Positions 33,797-40,160 of a DNA stretch of 64,000 nucleotides are shown here, one piece after another. Position 1 is the stretch's first letter. Every line of letters begins with the position of its first letter. The position numbers and the translations under genes were made by a program. Source of the DNA: Thainema sp. (GTDB lineage: Bacteria > Cyanobacteriota > Cyanobacteriia > Phormidesmidales > Phormidesmidaceae). Below the pieces are notes generated by a model, which worked only from the letters and a program-made list of their open reading frames with translations, searched no databases and had not been told where the DNA came from. The stretch is taken from assembly GCA_052168235.1 (NCBI GenBank), contig JBQLZK010000001.1, forward strand, positions 64,001 through 128,000, given 5' to 3'.

Positions 33797-34642
33797 ATGG
33801 CTATGATTGACTCGACGCGATTAACGCGATCGCGCTTTTTGCGACAAACATGTTTAGGATTGAGTGCCCTGCTGTTGGTCACGGCCTGCGGTGGTGGCGG
33901 CACTGATACGGCGAGTGGAGACGGCGCAGCCTCAGCCGACGGTGCCCAAACACTGACCGTTGCCACTGAACCTGCGTTTCCACCGTTTGAAGCTCAGGCC
34001 GCAGATGGTAGCCTAGAGGGTTTTGATATTGACCTGATGACGGCGATTGGCGAACAAGCGGGTTATGAAGTCGAATTTGAGAGCTTGCCCTTTGACGGCA
34101 TTATTCCGGCACTGCAAGCGGGTACGGTAGATGCAGCGATTAGCGGCATGACGATCACTGCTGAACGGGAAGAAAATGTTGATTTTACCGATCCGTACTT
34201 TCAGGCTGGACTTGCGATCGCAACTCGCAAGGATGAAGGTACGGTGCAGTCGTTTGAAGATCTAGAAAACAAGCGCATCGCCGTTCAAATTGGTACCACA
34301 GGCGCAGAAAAGGCGAATGAAGTATCGGGTGCAGAAGTCAGCACCTTTGATTCGGCTCCACTGGCCCTCCAGGAACTCCGAAACGGCAATGTTGATGCCG
34401 TGATCAACGATGCCCCGGTAACGCTCTATGCCATCAAAGAGGGCAACTTGGATGATCTGGAAGTGGTGGGTGAACAACTGACATCGGAGTATTACGGCAT
34501 CGCCTTGCCGACAGGTTCCGAGGATCTAGAGGCGATTAATCAGGCTTTAGATGAGATCATCGCCAACGGCACGTACGCGGAGATCTATCAAAAGTGGTTT
34601 GGCACTGAACCGCCTGAGCTACCGGAAAACTACACGCCATAG
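33797..34642 (+). CDS. Polar/basic amino-acid ABC transporter substrate-binding lipoprotein
   Basis: VTAC lipobox, EPAFPPFE, GFDIDL, SGMTITAER, VQIGTTG. Confidence 0.92.
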   Translation: MAMIDSTRLTRSRFLRQTCLGLSALLLVTACGGGGTDTASGDGAASADGAQTLTVATEPAFPPFEAQAADGSLEGFDIDLMTAIGEQAGYEVEFESLPFDGIIPALQAGTVDAAISGMTITAEREENVDFTDPYFQAGLAIATRKDEGTVQSFEDLENKRIAVQIGTTGAEKANEVSGAEVSTFDSAPLALQELRNGNVDAVINDAPVTLYAIKEGNLDDLEVVGEQLTSEYYGIALPTGSEDLEAINQALDEIIANGTYAEIYQKWFGTEPPELPENYTP

Positions 34643-34680
34643 GTTGTGTTCAGAATGCTCGGTTCTTAACTCGATTTGAT

Positions 34681-34813
34681 TAGGAGTTATGCAATTTAGC
34701 CTAGCCAACGCTACTGATAGAGTTATGATCCCCCCTGCCCCCCTTAATAAGGGGGGTGGCGATAGCCGGGGGGAGCCTGCAAGCTGTAAAACTTGTCAAG
34801 TGCGTAAGTCCTA
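34681..34813. mobile_element. MITE-like element (TAGGA.TTA.GCA ends) with CCCCCTTAATAAGGGGG core
   Basis: TIR TAGGAGTTATGCA...TGCGTAAGTCCTA (11/13 match), lying between the binding-protein and permease genes. Confidence 0.75.
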
Positions 34814-34845
34814 CTGATGTCATTCACTTAAATGGAGCCTGTATT

Positions 34846-35598
34846 GTGCTGATTCTTGGAGCAATTGATCTAGCACGGTCAATGGAGATTATCGCCGCTG
34901 CTCTTCCCAACCTGCTGCGCGGGGCGCTGATCACGGTTGAGCTAACGGCCCTAGCCGTTCTATTCGGTCTCGTTTTTGGATCGCTGATTGGTGTTGCTCG
35001 CCTGTCACCGATTCTGCCCCTGCGCTGGTTGACACGGGTTTATGTTGACTTCTTTCGCGGAACGCCACTGCTGGTGCAGATTTTCATGATTTACTTTGGC
35101 ATCCCGTCCCTGGCTGGGGGATTGGATCTAGAGTTTCGCTATCCCAATCGGCTGCTGCCTGCCGTTCTCGCCCTGTCGCTCAATGCCGCAGCCTACATTG
35201 CCGAAATTGTGCGGGGTGGTATTCAGTCGATTGAACTGGGGCAACAAGAAGCTTCTCAGTCGCTGGGTCTGGGTTCGGCGCAAACCATGTGGTACATCAT
35301 TTTCCCGCAAGCCTTTCGCCGCATGATTCCGCCGCTGGGTAATGAGTTTATTACCCTGATGAAAGATACGAGTCTGGTTGCTGTGATCGGCGTCGAAGAA
35401 TTGTTCCGTCGAGGTCAGCTCATCTATGCCAATAACTATGCCGTGTTCCAGATTTTGATTGCGGTTGCCGCGATGTATTTGGTGCTGACGCTGTTGTCGT
35501 CTCAGCTCTTTAGCTTCTTAGAACGCTGGATGGACCCGGTGAATAAGGCCAAACGTCGATCTTCAACGGCTGAATTGGCTCAAGAACCTACCGTTTAG
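34846..35598 (+). CDS. Amino-acid ABC transporter permease
   Basis: FRGTPLLVQIF, AAYIAEIVRGGI, GQQEASQSLG, IIFPQAFRR, KDTSL. Start moved to GTG 34846 after GGAG. Confidence 0.9.
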   Translation: MLILGAIDLARSMEIIAAALPNLLRGALITVELTALAVLFGLVFGSLIGVARLSPILPLRWLTRVYVDFFRGTPLLVQIFMIYFGIPSLAGGLDLEFRYPNRLLPAVLALSLNAAAYIAEIVRGGIQSIELGQQEASQSLGLGSAQTMWYIIFPQAFRRMIPPLGNEFITLMKDTSLVAVIGVEELFRRGQLIYANNYAVFQILIAVAAMYLVLTLLSSQLFSFLERWMDPVNKAKRRSSTAELAQEPTV

Positions 35599-35706: not shown

Positions 35707-37815
35707 TTAGGATGTTAGCGCTGTGTCAACCCACTGTTTAATCAGCGAGACGACTTCTTCAACGGGTACATCCTGCGATTCGTGATCGGCGCGCTTCACG
35801 ACTTCTACCTTGCCGTCTTTCAGTGAACGACCTGTGACAATCCGGAAGGGAATGCCCACCAGATCGGCATCTTTGAACTTGACTCCGGCTCGCTCATCCC
35901 GATCATCCAGCAGTGTTTCTACACCCGCCGCATTTAGCTCATTGTAGATTTGCTCGGCAGTCTTCATTTGATTTTCGTCGCTGATGTTGGGGACGACAAC
36001 AACGGCATGATAAGGCGCGATCGCAACTGGCCAAATAATCCCATCTTTATCGTAGGATTGCTCGACAGCGGCCTGTGCGAGACGGGATACACCAACACCG
36101 TAGCAGCCCATGACCAGCGGCTTCTCTTCACCCTGCTCATTGGTGTAAGTTGCGCCCATTGCCTCAGAGTATTTGGTGCCCAACTGGAAGATGTGACCGA
36201 TCTCGATGCCCCGTGCGGTTTGCAACGTTTGGCTTTGGTCATGCACCGCGCGATCGCCTGCTGCGGCTTTCCGCACGTCTACTACGTTGTCAGGCAGTGT
36301 AAACTGAGCGCCCCAGTTGGCCCCAACCACGTGACTATCCGTTTCGTTTGATCCAGTGGCAAAATCCTTCAGGTCAACAGCGGTTTCGTCCACTAAGCGA
36401 AGAAATTTTATTTGTGCTTCTCCCCTATTATTCAGCGTTTGCAGTTGCGCAAGCTGTCTCAACAGACCCTTCTCTCCGGTCAGTACTGAATCTTTAGTTA
36501 ATTCTTCTTCTGAGTTTGGTAGATTTCGAGATCGCTGTATGGCTGTTCCCCAAGCTTCGATAGCAGTATTAAGGTTTGAAAGGTCTTTGTCTTCCGGGAT
36601 GAATTTTCTCAAACTGTTGGCTTTGCCTTGTTCTTCCAAGTCAAAAACCTTTTTCAAGTCTTCCGCAGTCTCTAACTTTATCTTGGGATCAAAGTACAAA
36701 GTCCAATCCAACTCAGGCGACAAATATCCATTTGGTAAAGGCTCTAGATCCTCTGACTGTTGAGCATCCCAATGCTGAGCATCCACACTCAAAGCTTCTG
36801 TTTTTAAAACGGTGACACTACCTTCTATACCTGGATGCTGCAAAGCAGAAATCAGTTTATTCTGAAGTTTGACTTCGTTTACCTCTTGATCACCACGAAT
36901 ACTGACTAGAACAATTGCTCGAAGCTTTATATAAAAAGGACTTTGAAGATATTGAATATCATACAGAACGTTTTTGACAACGTTGGTCGGCGAACAGTTC
37001 AGATGCTCACAAAGGGTTGCGATCGTCGGTGTATTCGGCGTGTCTAGCTTTTCGTACTTCTTAAACGGCGAGGATTCAGCATCGGCAGGTAGCGATACAG
37101 CACGCTCAACGTTGGCAGCGTACTGGCCATCTTCGGTGTAGAGCACCTCGTCTTCACCCGCTTCTGCCAGCACCATAAACTCCTGGGATTTGGCACCTCC
37201 GATCGCACCGGAATCGGCTTCTACTGCGCGAAACGCCAAGCCCGTTCGCCGCAAAATGTTGCAGTAGGCTGTATACATCTTCTGATACGACTCTTCCAGC
37301 CCTGCCTCATCGGCATCAAACGAGTAGGCATCCTTCATGATGAACTCGCGTCCCCGCATCAGACCAAAGCGAGGCCGAATTTCGTCGCGGAACTTGGTTT
37401 GAATTTGGTAGAGATTCTGCGGCAACTGACGATAGGAGCGAATCATCTCCTTGGCAATCGTCGTAATTACCTCTTCATGGGTCGGCCCCAAACCCAGCTC
37501 TCGCTGCTGACGGTCGGTGATGGCAAACATAATGCCTTCGGCTTGGGTGTAGGTATCCCAGCGACCGGACTCGCGCCACAGCTCGGCAGGCTGAATTTGC
37601 GGCAGCAGACACTCCTGCGCTCCGGCTGCGTCCATTTCTTCTCGGACAATCTTTGATACTTTTTTGAGCACGCGCCACATCAGCGGCAGATAGGAATACA
37701 CCCCGCTACCAATCCGCCGAATATAGCCTGCCCGTACCAGCAGCTTATGACTCGGAATCTCCGCCTCGGCTGGATCTTCCCGCAATGTGACAAAAAGCAT
37801 CTGAGACAATCGCAT
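35707..37815 (-). CDS. proS: Prolyl-tRNA synthetase (bacterial type) with extra insertion in editing domain
   Basis: MRLSQMLF start, [55 protein letters not shown]; 702 aa. Confidence 0.97.
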
Positions 37816-37981
37816 GGGCGCGTTTCCCTCTCTCAACCCTACTGAATAGTTACACACCAGTTAAGTCTACATGTTCCAGCGCGATGCAACATAGATACGG
37901 ATTGGCTAACAGGTTACAAATGAGATCATCGCCAGCGTATCTTGGATGGTGTGCGTAAAAAGTGCGATCGCACATCAGAAG

Positions 37982-40147
37982 TCAGGGTTTTACATCCCGT
38001 ATTCTCCATTCTGACCTGCCAACCACCGCAAATTGCCGCCAGTGGATGCCGGCCAGTATCGTTGTGAGGCCACCCATCAAACTCAGAGGAATGACAAACA
38101 TCGCCACTTCAGGGGGCAGTCCTAAAATATTGACATCGCTTAATGACGCAGGTACCAACCCGATACCAATCGCCAGCGATAAGCAGGGAAACAGCAGGCA
38201 ACTGACGCTGCCAATGGAACCAAACCAAAACCGGCTTTTTTGCCGCTTGGCGAGCAACAACACCTGGCTTGCCATTGCAGCAAAGAAAACGGAACCTATG
38301 AACATTAAAGTACTGCCCACCAGTCCGAAAAGGTCGAGTTTGTCATTTAGAAAATGCCGATAACAGAGCATAAACCAAGCGGCGAAGAGGGTTGCCATCA
38401 GTAACAGATTGAGGCCTATACCTATGATTGGGGAGCTGGTATCGCCGACGAGTAAATCTCGCCACAGCGGTAGCCGACCTTCGTGGGTCATGCGGGCGGT
38501 GCGAAATCTGGCCCAGTCTTGCAAAGTCTGGCGATCGCAGCTAAGGCTCGGCACTAATAGCAAGCTATAGAGCAAACACAAGATGGCAATCAATGACAGC
38601 AGCGGCAACAAGTCATACCCCTCAACTTGGGTCTCCGACAACCCTAAGACGATGAACATAAACAGAGCAGTCAGCCAATAGCTATATCGTCGAGCCAGTA
38701 AAGACTTTGTAGGGTGTTCAAACCGCCGCTGTAGAGCATGACCTAGCAACACACACCAGCCACAGGCATGCAACACCGTCAATAGGGTGTATTCCACAAA
38801 ATTGACCCGAAAGATGCTCAGGGGCAGGTTAAGACCATTCGAATGGATCAGACTGTCTACATCAATGAAATAGCATGCACTTCCCAGAGGCGAGAACAAA
38901 ACAGCCCAGTCCAGCGGTGTGGACGGCATAGGTATATTGCTATCCCACCTTGCTAGCGAAAAAACTCCTACCAGAAACTGAAAACTCAAGCCCCCAGCCG
39001 CTGCTAGCCAAGGTATTAGGGACATTAACATCGGTGCTCTGGTGGCCAACCCCAACAGCAACGCTGCTACATACAGAATAATCGTTTGGCTCAGCAAGGC
39101 AATGTTAAAGCCAATCAAGTAAAATCCATTGAACCCTGCAGAGAGTCCCGCATAGATTTGAAATGGCACCATAGCCGCGATCGCAAGATACAGACAAATC
39201 GGTACGCCTGCTAGTTTGCCACCCAAAATAGTCAGGGCCGAACGGGGACTCATACGCAAGAAATTCAGCGTACCCCGCCGTTGTTCTTCCACCAAGTTGT
39301 TAGTCAATAGAAAGATGCCAAAGCCCATCAAGCACAAGGTCATCAATCCCGACAGGGTAATGAAGATGTTTTGGTACCACTGAGGCCAGTCAATTTGATA
39401 AGACAATTTATCTGTCGACAATTGACACCGTTGCTCGTCAGTATCGCCTATTAAACAGTAGTCAACCCGTTTATTTGATATGGCGATGCGGGATACTTGC
39501 ACCGTAAACTGTCCTCGATCAGGACGATAGAGTGTCAGCTCAACAGTGGAGTGAATCAGCGGCAGGGTTTCTGTTGATAACTGTTGGTGCTCAGTCCCCC
39601 GAATTAGGTTCGCTACATTTTCTTCGTGAACCGGACGGTAATCCCCTTGCCAATCAGAGGCTGGGTTTCCAGTGATCTCGGCTATGGTTGCTTTTTCCAA
39701 TTGTTCTATGGGCACACCATTTAAGGCTACCAAGCGATCCCCGACCTGTAACTGCTGCAAAGCAAACTGCCCTGCCTCATAATCGCCCCGTGCCACTGCT
39801 GGAGCCGCAATATTCTCGATGAAAAGTCCTCTTTGCCTACTAACCGTTCGCTCTGACCAGTTAGTAGGCATCACTTTCTCGTACACCTCATCAGGTAAAC
39901 GCACTGCTGGAGACAAATTAATCTGTGGATAGGTGGTCAACTCTAAATCCGCTGGATCGACTCCGGGCAGCGCATTAATGAAGCAAAACAGCACAATGAC
40001 CTGTACCAGCAATGACAACCCGATCGCTGTCAAAACTGAAAATCTTCTTAAGCGGCCTTTGAGTTCTCGGAGTAGTTGCGGATTCCAGTCTCCTAGGCGA
40101 TCAAGGACAGACGTTGTGAGGGTACCGATGGATCTAAACGTCAGCAT
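37982..40147 (-). CDS. ABC-2-type permease with PDZ-like extracytoplasmic insert
   Basis: DWNPQLLRELKGR, EEQRRGTLNFLRMSP...GKLAGVP and multiple TM segments; insert contains LQVGDRLVALNG. Confidence 0.8.
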   Translation of the reverse strand: MLTFRSIGTLTTSVLDRLGDWNPQLLRELKGRLRRFSVLTAIGLSLLVQVIVLFCFINALPGVDPADLELTTYPQINLSPAVRLPDEVYEKVMPTNWSERTVSRQRGLFIENIAAPAVARGDYEAGQFALQQLQVGDRLVALNGVPIEQLEKATIAEITGNPASDWQGDYRPVHEENVANLIRGTEHQQLSTETLPLIHSTVELTLYRPDRGQFTVQVSRIAISNKRVDYCLIGDTDEQRCQLSTDKLSYQIDWPQWYQNIFITLSGLMTLCLMGFGIFLLTNNLVEEQRRGTLNFLRMSPRSALTILGGKLAGVPICLYLAIAAMVPFQIYAGLSAGFNGFYLIGFNIALLSQTIILYVAALLLGLATRAPMLMSLIPWLAAAGGLSFQFLVGVFSLARWDSNIPMPSTPLDWAVLFSPLGSACYFIDVDSLIHSNGLNLPLSIFRVNFVEYTLLTVLHACGWCVLLGHALQRRFEHPTKSLLARRYSYWLTALFMFIVLGLSETQVEGYDLLPLLSLIAILCLLYSLLLVPSLSCDRQTLQDWARFRTARMTHEGRLPLWRDLLVGDTSSPIIGIGLNLLLMATLFAAWFMLCYRHFLNDKLDLFGLVGSTLMFIGSVFFAAMASQVLLLAKRQKSRFWFGSIGSVSCLLFPCLSLAIGIGLVPASLSDVNILGLPPEVAMFVIPLSLMGGLTTILAGIHWRQFAVVGRSEWRIRDVKP

Positions 40148-40160
40148 AACTATCTCCAAG

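Follow-up and report, generated by a model that had tools for sequence, protein, structure and literature searches.

A probable mosaic proS gene in a Thainema genome: a divergent, insert-bearing cassette in the editing domain of prolyl-tRNA synthetase

The stretch of DNA analysed here (the window) comprises 64,000 nucleotides, positions 64,001 to 128,000 of contig JBQLZK010000001.1 in the Thainema sp. assembly GCA_052168235.1, and carries on its minus strand proS, a gene for a prolyl-tRNA synthetase (ProRS) with extra sequence inside its editing domain. The open reading frame (ORF), including an upstream GTG start, extends from 35707 to 37857 and would encode 716 residues; the start at 37815 (MRLSQMLF) is conserved in all relatives and gives a protein of 702 residues. 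The gene belongs to the bacterial type (P-type) of ProRS: it has the class II core (PF00587, E 1.6e-34), the anticodon-binding HGTP domain (PF03129, E 3.7e-22) and, between motifs 2 and 3, the INS editing domain (PF04073, E 1.1e-09, above its cut-off) with the lysine and the GXXXP loop. The match to PF04073 covers profile positions 1-54 only; since an equally partial match (positions 1-55) is seen in canonical genes, this is no sign of a degenerate domain. The nearest structure in the PDB is the ProRS of P. aeruginosa (8w8j/5ucm, E 1.2e-158). The alignment to 8w8j places query residues 1-323 on chain residues 9-321 and query residues 466-694 on chain residues 346-575, with 143 residues of the window ProRS spanning 25 residues of the P. 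aeruginosa enzyme. The genome of the window (G000) has no second ProRS detectable with this query; its other matches are class II cores with 24-28% identity.

The editing residues are conserved. In an alignment of 46 cyanobacterial ProRS, insert-bearing ones included, K281, G363, Y364, P367 and H495 are invariant, and the GXXXP loop is contained in the motif PLGYxxP. In the alignment to 8w8j, K281 probably corresponds to E. coli K279; H495 is presumably E. coli H369. The editing lysine, the GXXXP loop and the conserved histidine are intact in the mosaic enzyme. According to one account, the editors of the INS superfamily all hold the aminoacyl-tRNA with the GXXXP loop and a conserved lysine (PMC11286415). 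Because it is the only ProRS found, the enzyme is presumably active: it would charge tRNAPro and would probably clear Ala-tRNAPro. The features of the gene, with the evidence for each, are as follows.

35707..37815, minus strand: proS, bacterial-type prolyl-tRNA synthetase, 702 residues plus stop (Pfam, PDB match, conserved start)
36262..36966, minus strand: probable full recombination tract, residues about 284-518, about 700 bp (codon mismatches, synonymous divergence, departure of a metagenome contig just before 36962)
36331..36333, minus strand: conserved histidine H495 of the INS domain, in DSHVVGANW (invariant column)
36409..36705, minus strand: hydrophilic insert, predicted to be helical, residues 371-469, 99 residues, WTLYF...GEAQI (alignment to relatives, structure prediction)
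36409..36961, minus strand: core of the divergent cassette, residues about 285-469, 553 nucleotides (blastn gap against the congener, nucleotide identity, composition of third codon positions)
36715..36729, minus strand: editing-site loop GXXXP, G363-Y-L-S-P367, which immediately precedes the insert (invariant columns G363, Y364 and P367)
36913..36960, minus strand: remodelled beta-hairpin of the INS domain, 5 residues longer than in the congener, which has QVVYDNGMTVL (alignment; predicted strands 279-291 and 297-307)
36973..36975, minus strand: conserved editing lysine K281, in VVKNVLY, just outside the cassette (invariant column)

Three differences separate the window protein from the canonical form: the longer hairpin, a further 8 residues, and the large insert in the linker that follows the GXXXP loop. 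In the alignment, the canonical hairpin stretch reads YQVVYDNGMTVL, and the INS stretch between hairpin and GXXXP loop is strongly diverged. The insert replaces most of the linker SDDYIKGDKLIAPK..., which consists of 17-18 residues and connects PLGY(I/L)xP and KFLRLVD in canonical cyanobacterial ProRS, proteins of 599-614 residues. The inserted segment is hydrophilic, with a grand average of hydropathy (GRAVY) of -0.76, a net charge of -2 and 32 charged residues in 100.

The limits of the divergent block can be read from a second genome of the same genus (G001), which has a ProRS of 602 residues and no insert. When the two proS loci (L001 in the window, L004 in G001) are compared by blastn, only 36409-36961 remains unaligned, and the congener has 253 nucleotides there. 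The nucleotide identity is 0.83-1.00 over residues 1-285, falls to 0.37-0.60 over residues 285-470, is about 0.80 with low synonymous identity in residues 471-520, and reaches about 0.9 beyond. At the codon level, mismatches are absent from codons 272-283, dense from 284 to about 518 and sparse after that: in gene orientation, the 5' break is sharp at codon 284, and the 3' break lies near codon 518 with no sharp limit. The synonymous divergence (dS, Nei-Gojobori) is 0.42 in the N-terminal and 0.61 in the C-terminal flank and is saturated in residues 284-367; in residues 471-520 it is 2.71, with a nonsynonymous divergence (dN) of only 0.04.

The cassette is rare and distributed unevenly. We searched 41 genomes, that of the window and 40 relatives (its own family and samples of its class), and this type of ProRS was present in 39 of them, with weak matches only in G009 and G031. 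The match is split into two pieces (query residues about 1-370 and about 467-702) in 36 of the 39, which have proteins of about 600 residues, and runs through the insert only in the remaining three, G000, G023 and G013. The patchiness extends into genera: both G001 and G008, which belongs to the genus of G023, are without the insert. When residues 285-475 were used to search 5.8 billion protein clusters, only five ProRS with this cassette were recovered, all from Leptolyngbyaceae-type cyanobacteria, and we refer to them as family A. Besides the window protein, these are the proteins of Sphaerothrix gracilis (696 residues, identical with G023), of Trichocoleus sp. FACHB-591 (692 residues) and of a Leptolyngbyaceae metagenome-assembled genome (698 residues, identical with G013), as well as P0006 (676 residues). 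In public records they are simply labelled proline--tRNA ligase. The flanks of P0006 are 96% identical to those of the window protein, but its insert is only 28% identical. Its cassette keeps the W-x-K-Y-F and I-P landmarks and has no hairpin extension. Three near-identical backgrounds thus show three states, the canonical one, the window variant and the P0006 variant, and at least two exchanges are therefore needed.

The block also stands out by its composition. In 200-nucleotide windows the GC content is 0.37-0.43 over 36400-37100, as compared to 0.51-0.575 on either side. Over codons 281-480 it is 0.403, and the GC content of third codon positions (GC3) is 0.340 against 0.596 in the flanks. 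The lowest GC3 of all, 0.267, is found in the diverged part of the editing domain (codons 281-370) rather than in the insert (0.404). Low GC3 over codons about 271-480 (0.20-0.50, against 0.53-0.83 elsewhere) is common to all three insert-bearing genes, and their canonical congeners show no such drop. Among the 200-codon windows of the genome (ORFs of at least 400 residues), 355 of 8759 (4%) have a GC3 of 0.340 or less; the GC3 of the block is thus unusual but not extreme and falls in an existing low-GC3 minority of the genome. Much of this agrees with the original prediction, made from the letters of the window: its 99-residue stretch in a ProRS of 702 residues lies at 36409-36705 as stated, its cassette limits of 36409-36965 agree almost to the base with the blastn gap, and both the low GC of the block and the divergence of the adjoining editing-domain stretch are borne out. 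The relatives are of about the predicted 600 residues; their linker is longer than the approximately 13 residues that had been expected.

For the phylogenetic analysis, the flanks (453 columns, 42 rows) and the cassette (residues 281-367 and 472-520, 123 columns, with the insert columns excluded) were treated separately, and the partial sequence L006 was omitted from both trees. The flank tree follows that of the species: L001 joins the canonical L004 of G001 and P0006 (support 99), L002 of G023 joins its congener L021 of G008, and G013 joins G015. In the cassette tree, the five rows of family A form one clade (97/85), apart from the 37 others. When a family A clade is imposed on the flank data, it is rejected by the approximately unbiased (AU) test with a difference in log-likelihood (delta lnL) of 287 and p-AU 4e-42. 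The incongruence is thus strongly shown by the flank data, and it is only suggested by the cassette data. In this gene, block and flanks differ both in phylogeny and in divergence, and this is what characterizes a recombination mosaic.

The reading that we favour and consider probable is that proS is a mosaic gene, with an internal tract that has its own history and belongs to a small group of divergent alleles, consisting of a rebuilt centre of the INS domain and a helical module. The tract would have been exchanged by homologous recombination between related species, with the conserved proS sequence on either side serving as homology arms. As to the direction, either family A would have been gained in the lineage of the window, or the canonical form would have been regained in the congener. 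An alternative is an old vertical feature with a single origin in the ancestor of the family, its patchiness being due to repeated loss only. Such a history would fit the limitation of family A to one family-level group, and the members are as diverged as their genera, with between-genus synonymous sites that are saturated in flanks and cassette alike. We regard it as improbable for four reasons: (i) for a loss to bring back exactly the canonical hairpin, linker and GC3, a canonical sequence would have to be imported, which is itself recombination; (ii) within the genus, the flanks have a dS of 0.42-0.61 and the tract is saturated; (iii) in the AU test on the flanks, family A does not hold as a clade; and (iv) P0006 presents a third state in the same background.

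A trivial or selfish origin of the block, as an assembly chimera, an intein, an in-frame intron or a repeat resembling a miniature inverted-repeat transposable element (MITE), also had to be considered. Parts of the stretch occur in seven public runs, and in the four that were compared the matching sequences are low-depth contigs, so that uncovered bins are uninformative; one RNA run contains 0.06 of the sampled words. The metagenome X1 has read-length contigs identical to the window at 35739-35889, at 36021-36331, at 36434-36584 within the insert, at 36707-36857 within the cassette and at 37628-37860. A further X1 contig agrees with 36962-37042 apart from six differences and then diverges, and its loose end, read as the reverse complement, encodes QVVYDNGMTV and is identical to canonical G001 in 28 of 30 positions. 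The presence of window-identical and of canonical-type contigs implies that both alleles occur in one sample, and the latter contig leaves the window allele where the 5' break, codon 284-285, had been placed. A chimera produced in assembly is unlikely: the homologous in-frame cassettes of four other assemblies argue against it more strongly than the metagenome contigs, which are weak evidence.

The candidates for a mobile origin were rejected one by one. A MITE-like or other repeat element was dismissed since there are neither further copies in the genome nor terminal repeats: tblastn and blastn searches of the 7.5-Mb genome with insert and cassette returned no second copy (next-best E 0.089 and 0.029), and the ends of the block share short matches at chance level only. 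Rfam gave no family within the gene and a single hit outside it (E 0.77). An intein was excluded by the ends of the insert, which starts with W371 after E-L-D and finishes with Q-I469 followed by K-F; no Hint or intein family was detected, with a limit of E <= 0.01 for the whole protein and of E <= 1 for eight inserts. A CAAD/CURT1 membrane anchor does not agree with the hydropathy and the charged residues of the insert, nor with the lack of any Pfam family at E <= 1, and the original prediction was right that the insert is neither an intein nor CAAD-like. Taken as a whole, an artefact or a selfish element is very improbable. The abrupt shift in composition, the lack of a contig that bridges a junction and the entry of a repeat element at the same site in another genus (see below) would be in line with it; the homologous cassettes elsewhere, the exact short metagenome contigs inside cassette and flanks, and the failure to find second copies, terminal repeats, Rfam matches or intein residues and families speak against it.

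What the insert may look like was addressed by AlphaFold2 (AF2). The full-length model, calculated from the 46-row alignment, is poor overall, with a mean predicted local distance difference test score (pLDDT) of 65, and the INS region and the insert are its best parts. Over successive blocks of residues 361-470 the pLDDT is 80, 77, 78, 73, 85, 86, 86, 60, 64, 85 and 80, so that residues 431-450 (60-64) form the low-confidence part of the insert and the other blocks score 73-86. Helices are predicted at 384-391, 396-403, 415-429, 436-439 and 448-463, and the insert modelled alone from seven rows (mean pLDDT 63) has the same helices. From these models we infer that the insert would form a small helical subdomain beside the editing pocket. 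Searches for relatives of known structure or family were negative within their scope: with the insert model (mean pLDDT 63), Foldseek gave no match at E <= 0.001, and of 48,161 chains compared by VIA-align the best reached a Z of 5.8, against a helical background that extends up to about 13. In Pfam at E <= 1, eight inserts gave sub-threshold noise only, and the top score in the ESM Atlas was 0.87, below the lead level of 0.9. A single-sequence HMMER search of 1.84 billion representatives returned a multi-RRM repeat protein as its sole hit (E 7.7e-5), and this candidate was rejected since the score sums short weak repeats and the best BLASTP piece has an E of 0.03. Full-text searching of the literature found no description of this insert.

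The linker that houses the insert of family A is used by other sequences as well. A wider sample of 401 genomes of the phylum contains one continuous full-length match in at least six, including G000; this is a lower bound since inserts that split the match are missed. The length of the ORF is unreliable for such a survey, as illustrated by G158, where an open frame of 685 residues harbours a canonical ProRS of 600 residues. All five further genomes with a continuous match (G342, G065, G225, G062 and G161) have extra sequence in the same linker, and three canonical congeners were retrieved beside five insert-bearing genomes for comparison. In G342 (locus L031, contig C66, 848-1085), the extra sequence is an in-frame tandem array of 36 nucleotides in 6.6 copies with 93% matches. 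Its unit has a C7...G7 palindrome and is translated as about seven PPLGKGGLKDSN repeats, and with a GC3 of 0.56 the array exceeds its own gene (about 0.36-0.44), unlike the helical inserts. Hydrophilic inserts of 78-86 residues occupy the same site in the other four (L032-L035, from G065, G225, G062 and G161), and inserts of 87-100 residues were seen in Desmonostoc muscorum, a related ENA protein and Synechococcus sp. PCC 7502 (proteins P0038, P0082 and P0069). In this second set, from Nostocales-type and other cyanobacteria, the INS domain is canonical on both sides, DDYI precedes and P-x-F-L-R follows the insert, and there is a loose common pattern of DDYI and then L-T/S-x-x-E-L. A profile comparison by hhalign detected no demonstrable similarity between family A and the second set (probability 0.7, P 0.08). 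The linker is thus an insertion hot spot, with at least three kinds of insert.

A number of these and further results weigh against the mosaic nature of proS or against a part of that reading. First, the cassettes of family A are only 28-40% identical to one another, with saturated synonymous sites; for the deeper nodes, an old vertical descent within family A, later replaced by canonical alleles, may have taken place. Second, when the grouping of the species is imposed on the cassette data, delta lnL is 30 and p-AU 0.059, above the limit of 0.05, and the branches of family A are long (0.42-0.9), with a warning of the tree program about long-branch joining; therefore, the support of the tree for a common origin of the cassettes leans on the shared insert and on the indels. 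Third, unrelated inserts at the same site are also GC3-poor (0.23, 0.38 and 0.35 in L033-L035 of G225, G062 and G161, with flanks of about 0.5-0.6), and in three canonical genes (L036-L038) the upstream segment of the INS domain has a lower GC3 than the N-terminal flank; composition alone is therefore no proof of foreign origin. Fourth, a donor lineage was not found: a profile built from the five inserts recovered the same five ProRS only when 7999 candidates among longer proteins were scored, and among proteins of 50-179 residues it recovered nothing. Fifth, none of the contigs in the four runs spans a junction with at least 31 letters to its left and to its right, and the source sample may itself be among the runs. 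Sixth, with mean pLDDT values of 65 and 63, the structure models are weak. Finally, the insert has a dN of 0.65-0.75 as compared to 0.13-0.15 in the flanks, and thus evolves about five times faster, and its net charge varies from -5 to +1 in family A and from -3 to +7 in seven other helical inserts; both speak against a conserved basic RNA-binding surface. To these, the tandem array in G342 adds that the loop tolerates arbitrary sequence.

The low GC3 of the block can be explained in two ways. Either the block has resided in an unsampled, AT-richer donor pool, or, as one might speculate, it has decayed because it is too divergent to recombine with the surrounding canonical alleles; such a decay would also account for the GC3-poor inserts of other kinds. 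The foreign look that the original prediction had ascribed to the cassette is thus reflected in the low GC3, but low-GC donors were not found and other inserts share the property. Its central proposal, that an essential synthetase has received a variable module by exchange, is supported by the patchiness, the conflict between the trees, the jump in dS, the P0006 variant and the lack of a second ProRS detectable with this query. Of its functional ideas, altered editing, binding of a partner and evasion of a phage or toxin factor, none is favoured by the present results. That close strains might carry different inserts at the same junction is exactly what P0006 presents. Conservation of the insert across the lineage with normal codon usage, which would have spoken against the proposal, was not observed, nor did its other weak point, a chimera, find support. 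The undescribed helical domain is plausible: AF2 predicts the helices, and neither sequence, fold and Pfam searches nor the literature provided a match.

What does the module do? One answer, which may have nearly an even chance of being correct, is that it does nothing in particular: the permissive surface loop after GXXXP would take up arbitrary in-frame DNA, the module would be a tolerated passenger that rides on the recombining allele, and its conserved positions would simply keep it soluble and unobtrusive. The three or more kinds of insert at exactly this loop (family A, the array of G342 and the helical inserts of 78-100 residues) fit this picture, as do the fast nonsynonymous change and the variable charge, the congener that manages without the insert, and the lack of a homologue, family or fold match. 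The conservation within family A is more difficult to reconcile with a passenger. In all five diverged members, the reading frame is open through about 100 AT-rich codons; eight positions of the insert are invariant (Y4, F5, L11, E12, I36, P37, L42 and A55); and the first roughly 45 and the last roughly 25 residues are conserved around a variable middle with indels. The proportion of nonsynonymous differences (pN 0.44-0.48) is below that of synonymous ones (pS 0.75-0.98), and no ratio can be formed since dS is saturated. Moreover, the neighbouring INS strands have diverged together with the insert in family A only, which suggests packing, and when the whole protein is modelled, AF2 predicts the module with fair confidence. 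Our best guess at a function is that the module might be an added contact surface for the acceptor arm of tRNAPro, or for its CCA end on the way into the editing site, and might in this way alter the rate or the selectivity of editing. We are inclined to doubt this idea somewhat more than to believe it; it is modelled on the C-terminal domain of plant ProXp-ala (see below).

The three states in near-identical genetic backgrounds, the two alleles in one metagenome and the highly divergent cassettes beside conserved flanks raise the question of whether selection maintains the variation. In this case, a pool of cassettes would be kept by diversifying or balancing selection as a contact point for, or as protection from, a factor such as a phage protein, toxin or inhibitor, or the cassettes would tune editing against analogues of proline or alanine. 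We consider this unlikely. To our knowledge, no phage protein, toxin or inhibitor aimed at ProRS or tRNAPro has been described, and no such factor was found here. The gene neighbourhood consists of ABC-transporter and membrane genes only. In addition, the co-occurring alleles may reflect two species in one sample, and saturated dS precludes an estimate of dN/dS. Compensation by a trans-editing gene was tried as an explanation and rejected, since a single free YbaK-like gene was counted in each of five genomes, some with the cassette and some lacking it, and the same equal count argues against selection acting on the cassettes. The boldest version of such a scenario is a Leptolyngbyaceae pool of recombining editing cassettes in a single essential proS, with the module as a selected specificity device that alters which mischarged or analogue-charged tRNAPro is removed, or as a contact point or shield for a factor attacking ProRS or tRNAPro, its alleles being kept by balancing or diversifying selection and not by drift. 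It, too, would come as a surprise to us, being rather unlikely in its entirety.

Around the gene, the similarity between the window and G001 ends about 115-160 nucleotides upstream of the proS start (from about 37973 onwards in the window, and beyond 2729 in L004). The adjacent gene on the minus strand (37982-40159) encodes a membrane protein of 725 residues and has no blastn counterpart in the adjoining 1.3 kb of G001. Downstream, an ABC-permease gene is syntenic with G001 at 85% identity. The genes at 33797-35598, read from their translations as putative substrate-binding and permease genes of an amino-acid ABC transporter, are convergent with proS, and no link to the cassette was seen. Among the matches listed, about 29 of the 401 genomes of the phylum have no strong match to this bacterial-type ProRS, including the complete-looking genomes G106, G205, G207 and G335 of the same class; like G009 and G031, they may have another type of ProRS.

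Aminoacyl-tRNA synthetases are usually regarded as stable, vertically inherited core genes, and the block in the single proS of this free-living cyanobacterium seems to have a history of its own. It can serve as a test case for the question of whether an AT-rich segment of a gene indicates a foreign origin or a segment that has ceased to recombine with the population around it. Should the module influence editing or tRNA handling, nature has provided a set of alleles to study how the INS domain admits its substrate. If the module is inert, the linker is a precise permissive site in ProRS that has been hit independently by several kinds of insert, of use in protein engineering and as a marker at the strain level. 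If selection should be involved after all, a core enzyme of translation would possess a polymorphic, swappable subdomain.

How does this gene compare with known systems? With the INS/YbaK editing domain (PF04073), in which its cassette is located, the window ProRS shares the lysine and the GXXXP loop and is otherwise a normal P-type enzyme; it differs by the approximately 100 residues after GXXXP, the longer hairpin and the diverged stretch. A second point of reference is CAAD, which is derived from CURT1 and has been inserted repeatedly in class I synthetases of cyanobacteria to anchor them in the thylakoids (PMC4893482). As described there, CAAD lies on the face opposite the tRNA, and ProRS is dealt with in the context of complex formation rather than insertion. 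To the extent that CAAD is described there, both modules are sporadic in their lineages, recur at the same sites and reside in cyanobacterial synthetases, but CAAD is a membrane anchor of class I enzymes, whereas the ProRS module is hydrophilic, has no homologue that we could find and is placed beside the editing site of a class II enzyme. In plant ProXp-ala, a helical C-terminal domain is reported to provide dimerisation and better tRNA binding (PMC9425024). Like the ProRS module, it is a helical addition without detectable homologues to an editing domain of the INS family; it differs in being C-terminal and attached via a coil linker, eukaryotic, conserved vertically in plants and not a recombining cassette. 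Penicillin-binding proteins are examples of mosaic genes. Mosaicism by intragenic recombination is a general concept (PMC3241670), and known mosaics resemble proS in having an internal block that is divergent in sequence and composition within native flanks, with trees of block and flanks that disagree. The change that known mosaics confer is usually a selectable one, for example drug resistance; the block in proS adds a whole subdomain. This gene combines two phenomena of known kinds, an idiosyncratic insertion in a synthetase and a mosaic formed by intragenic recombination.

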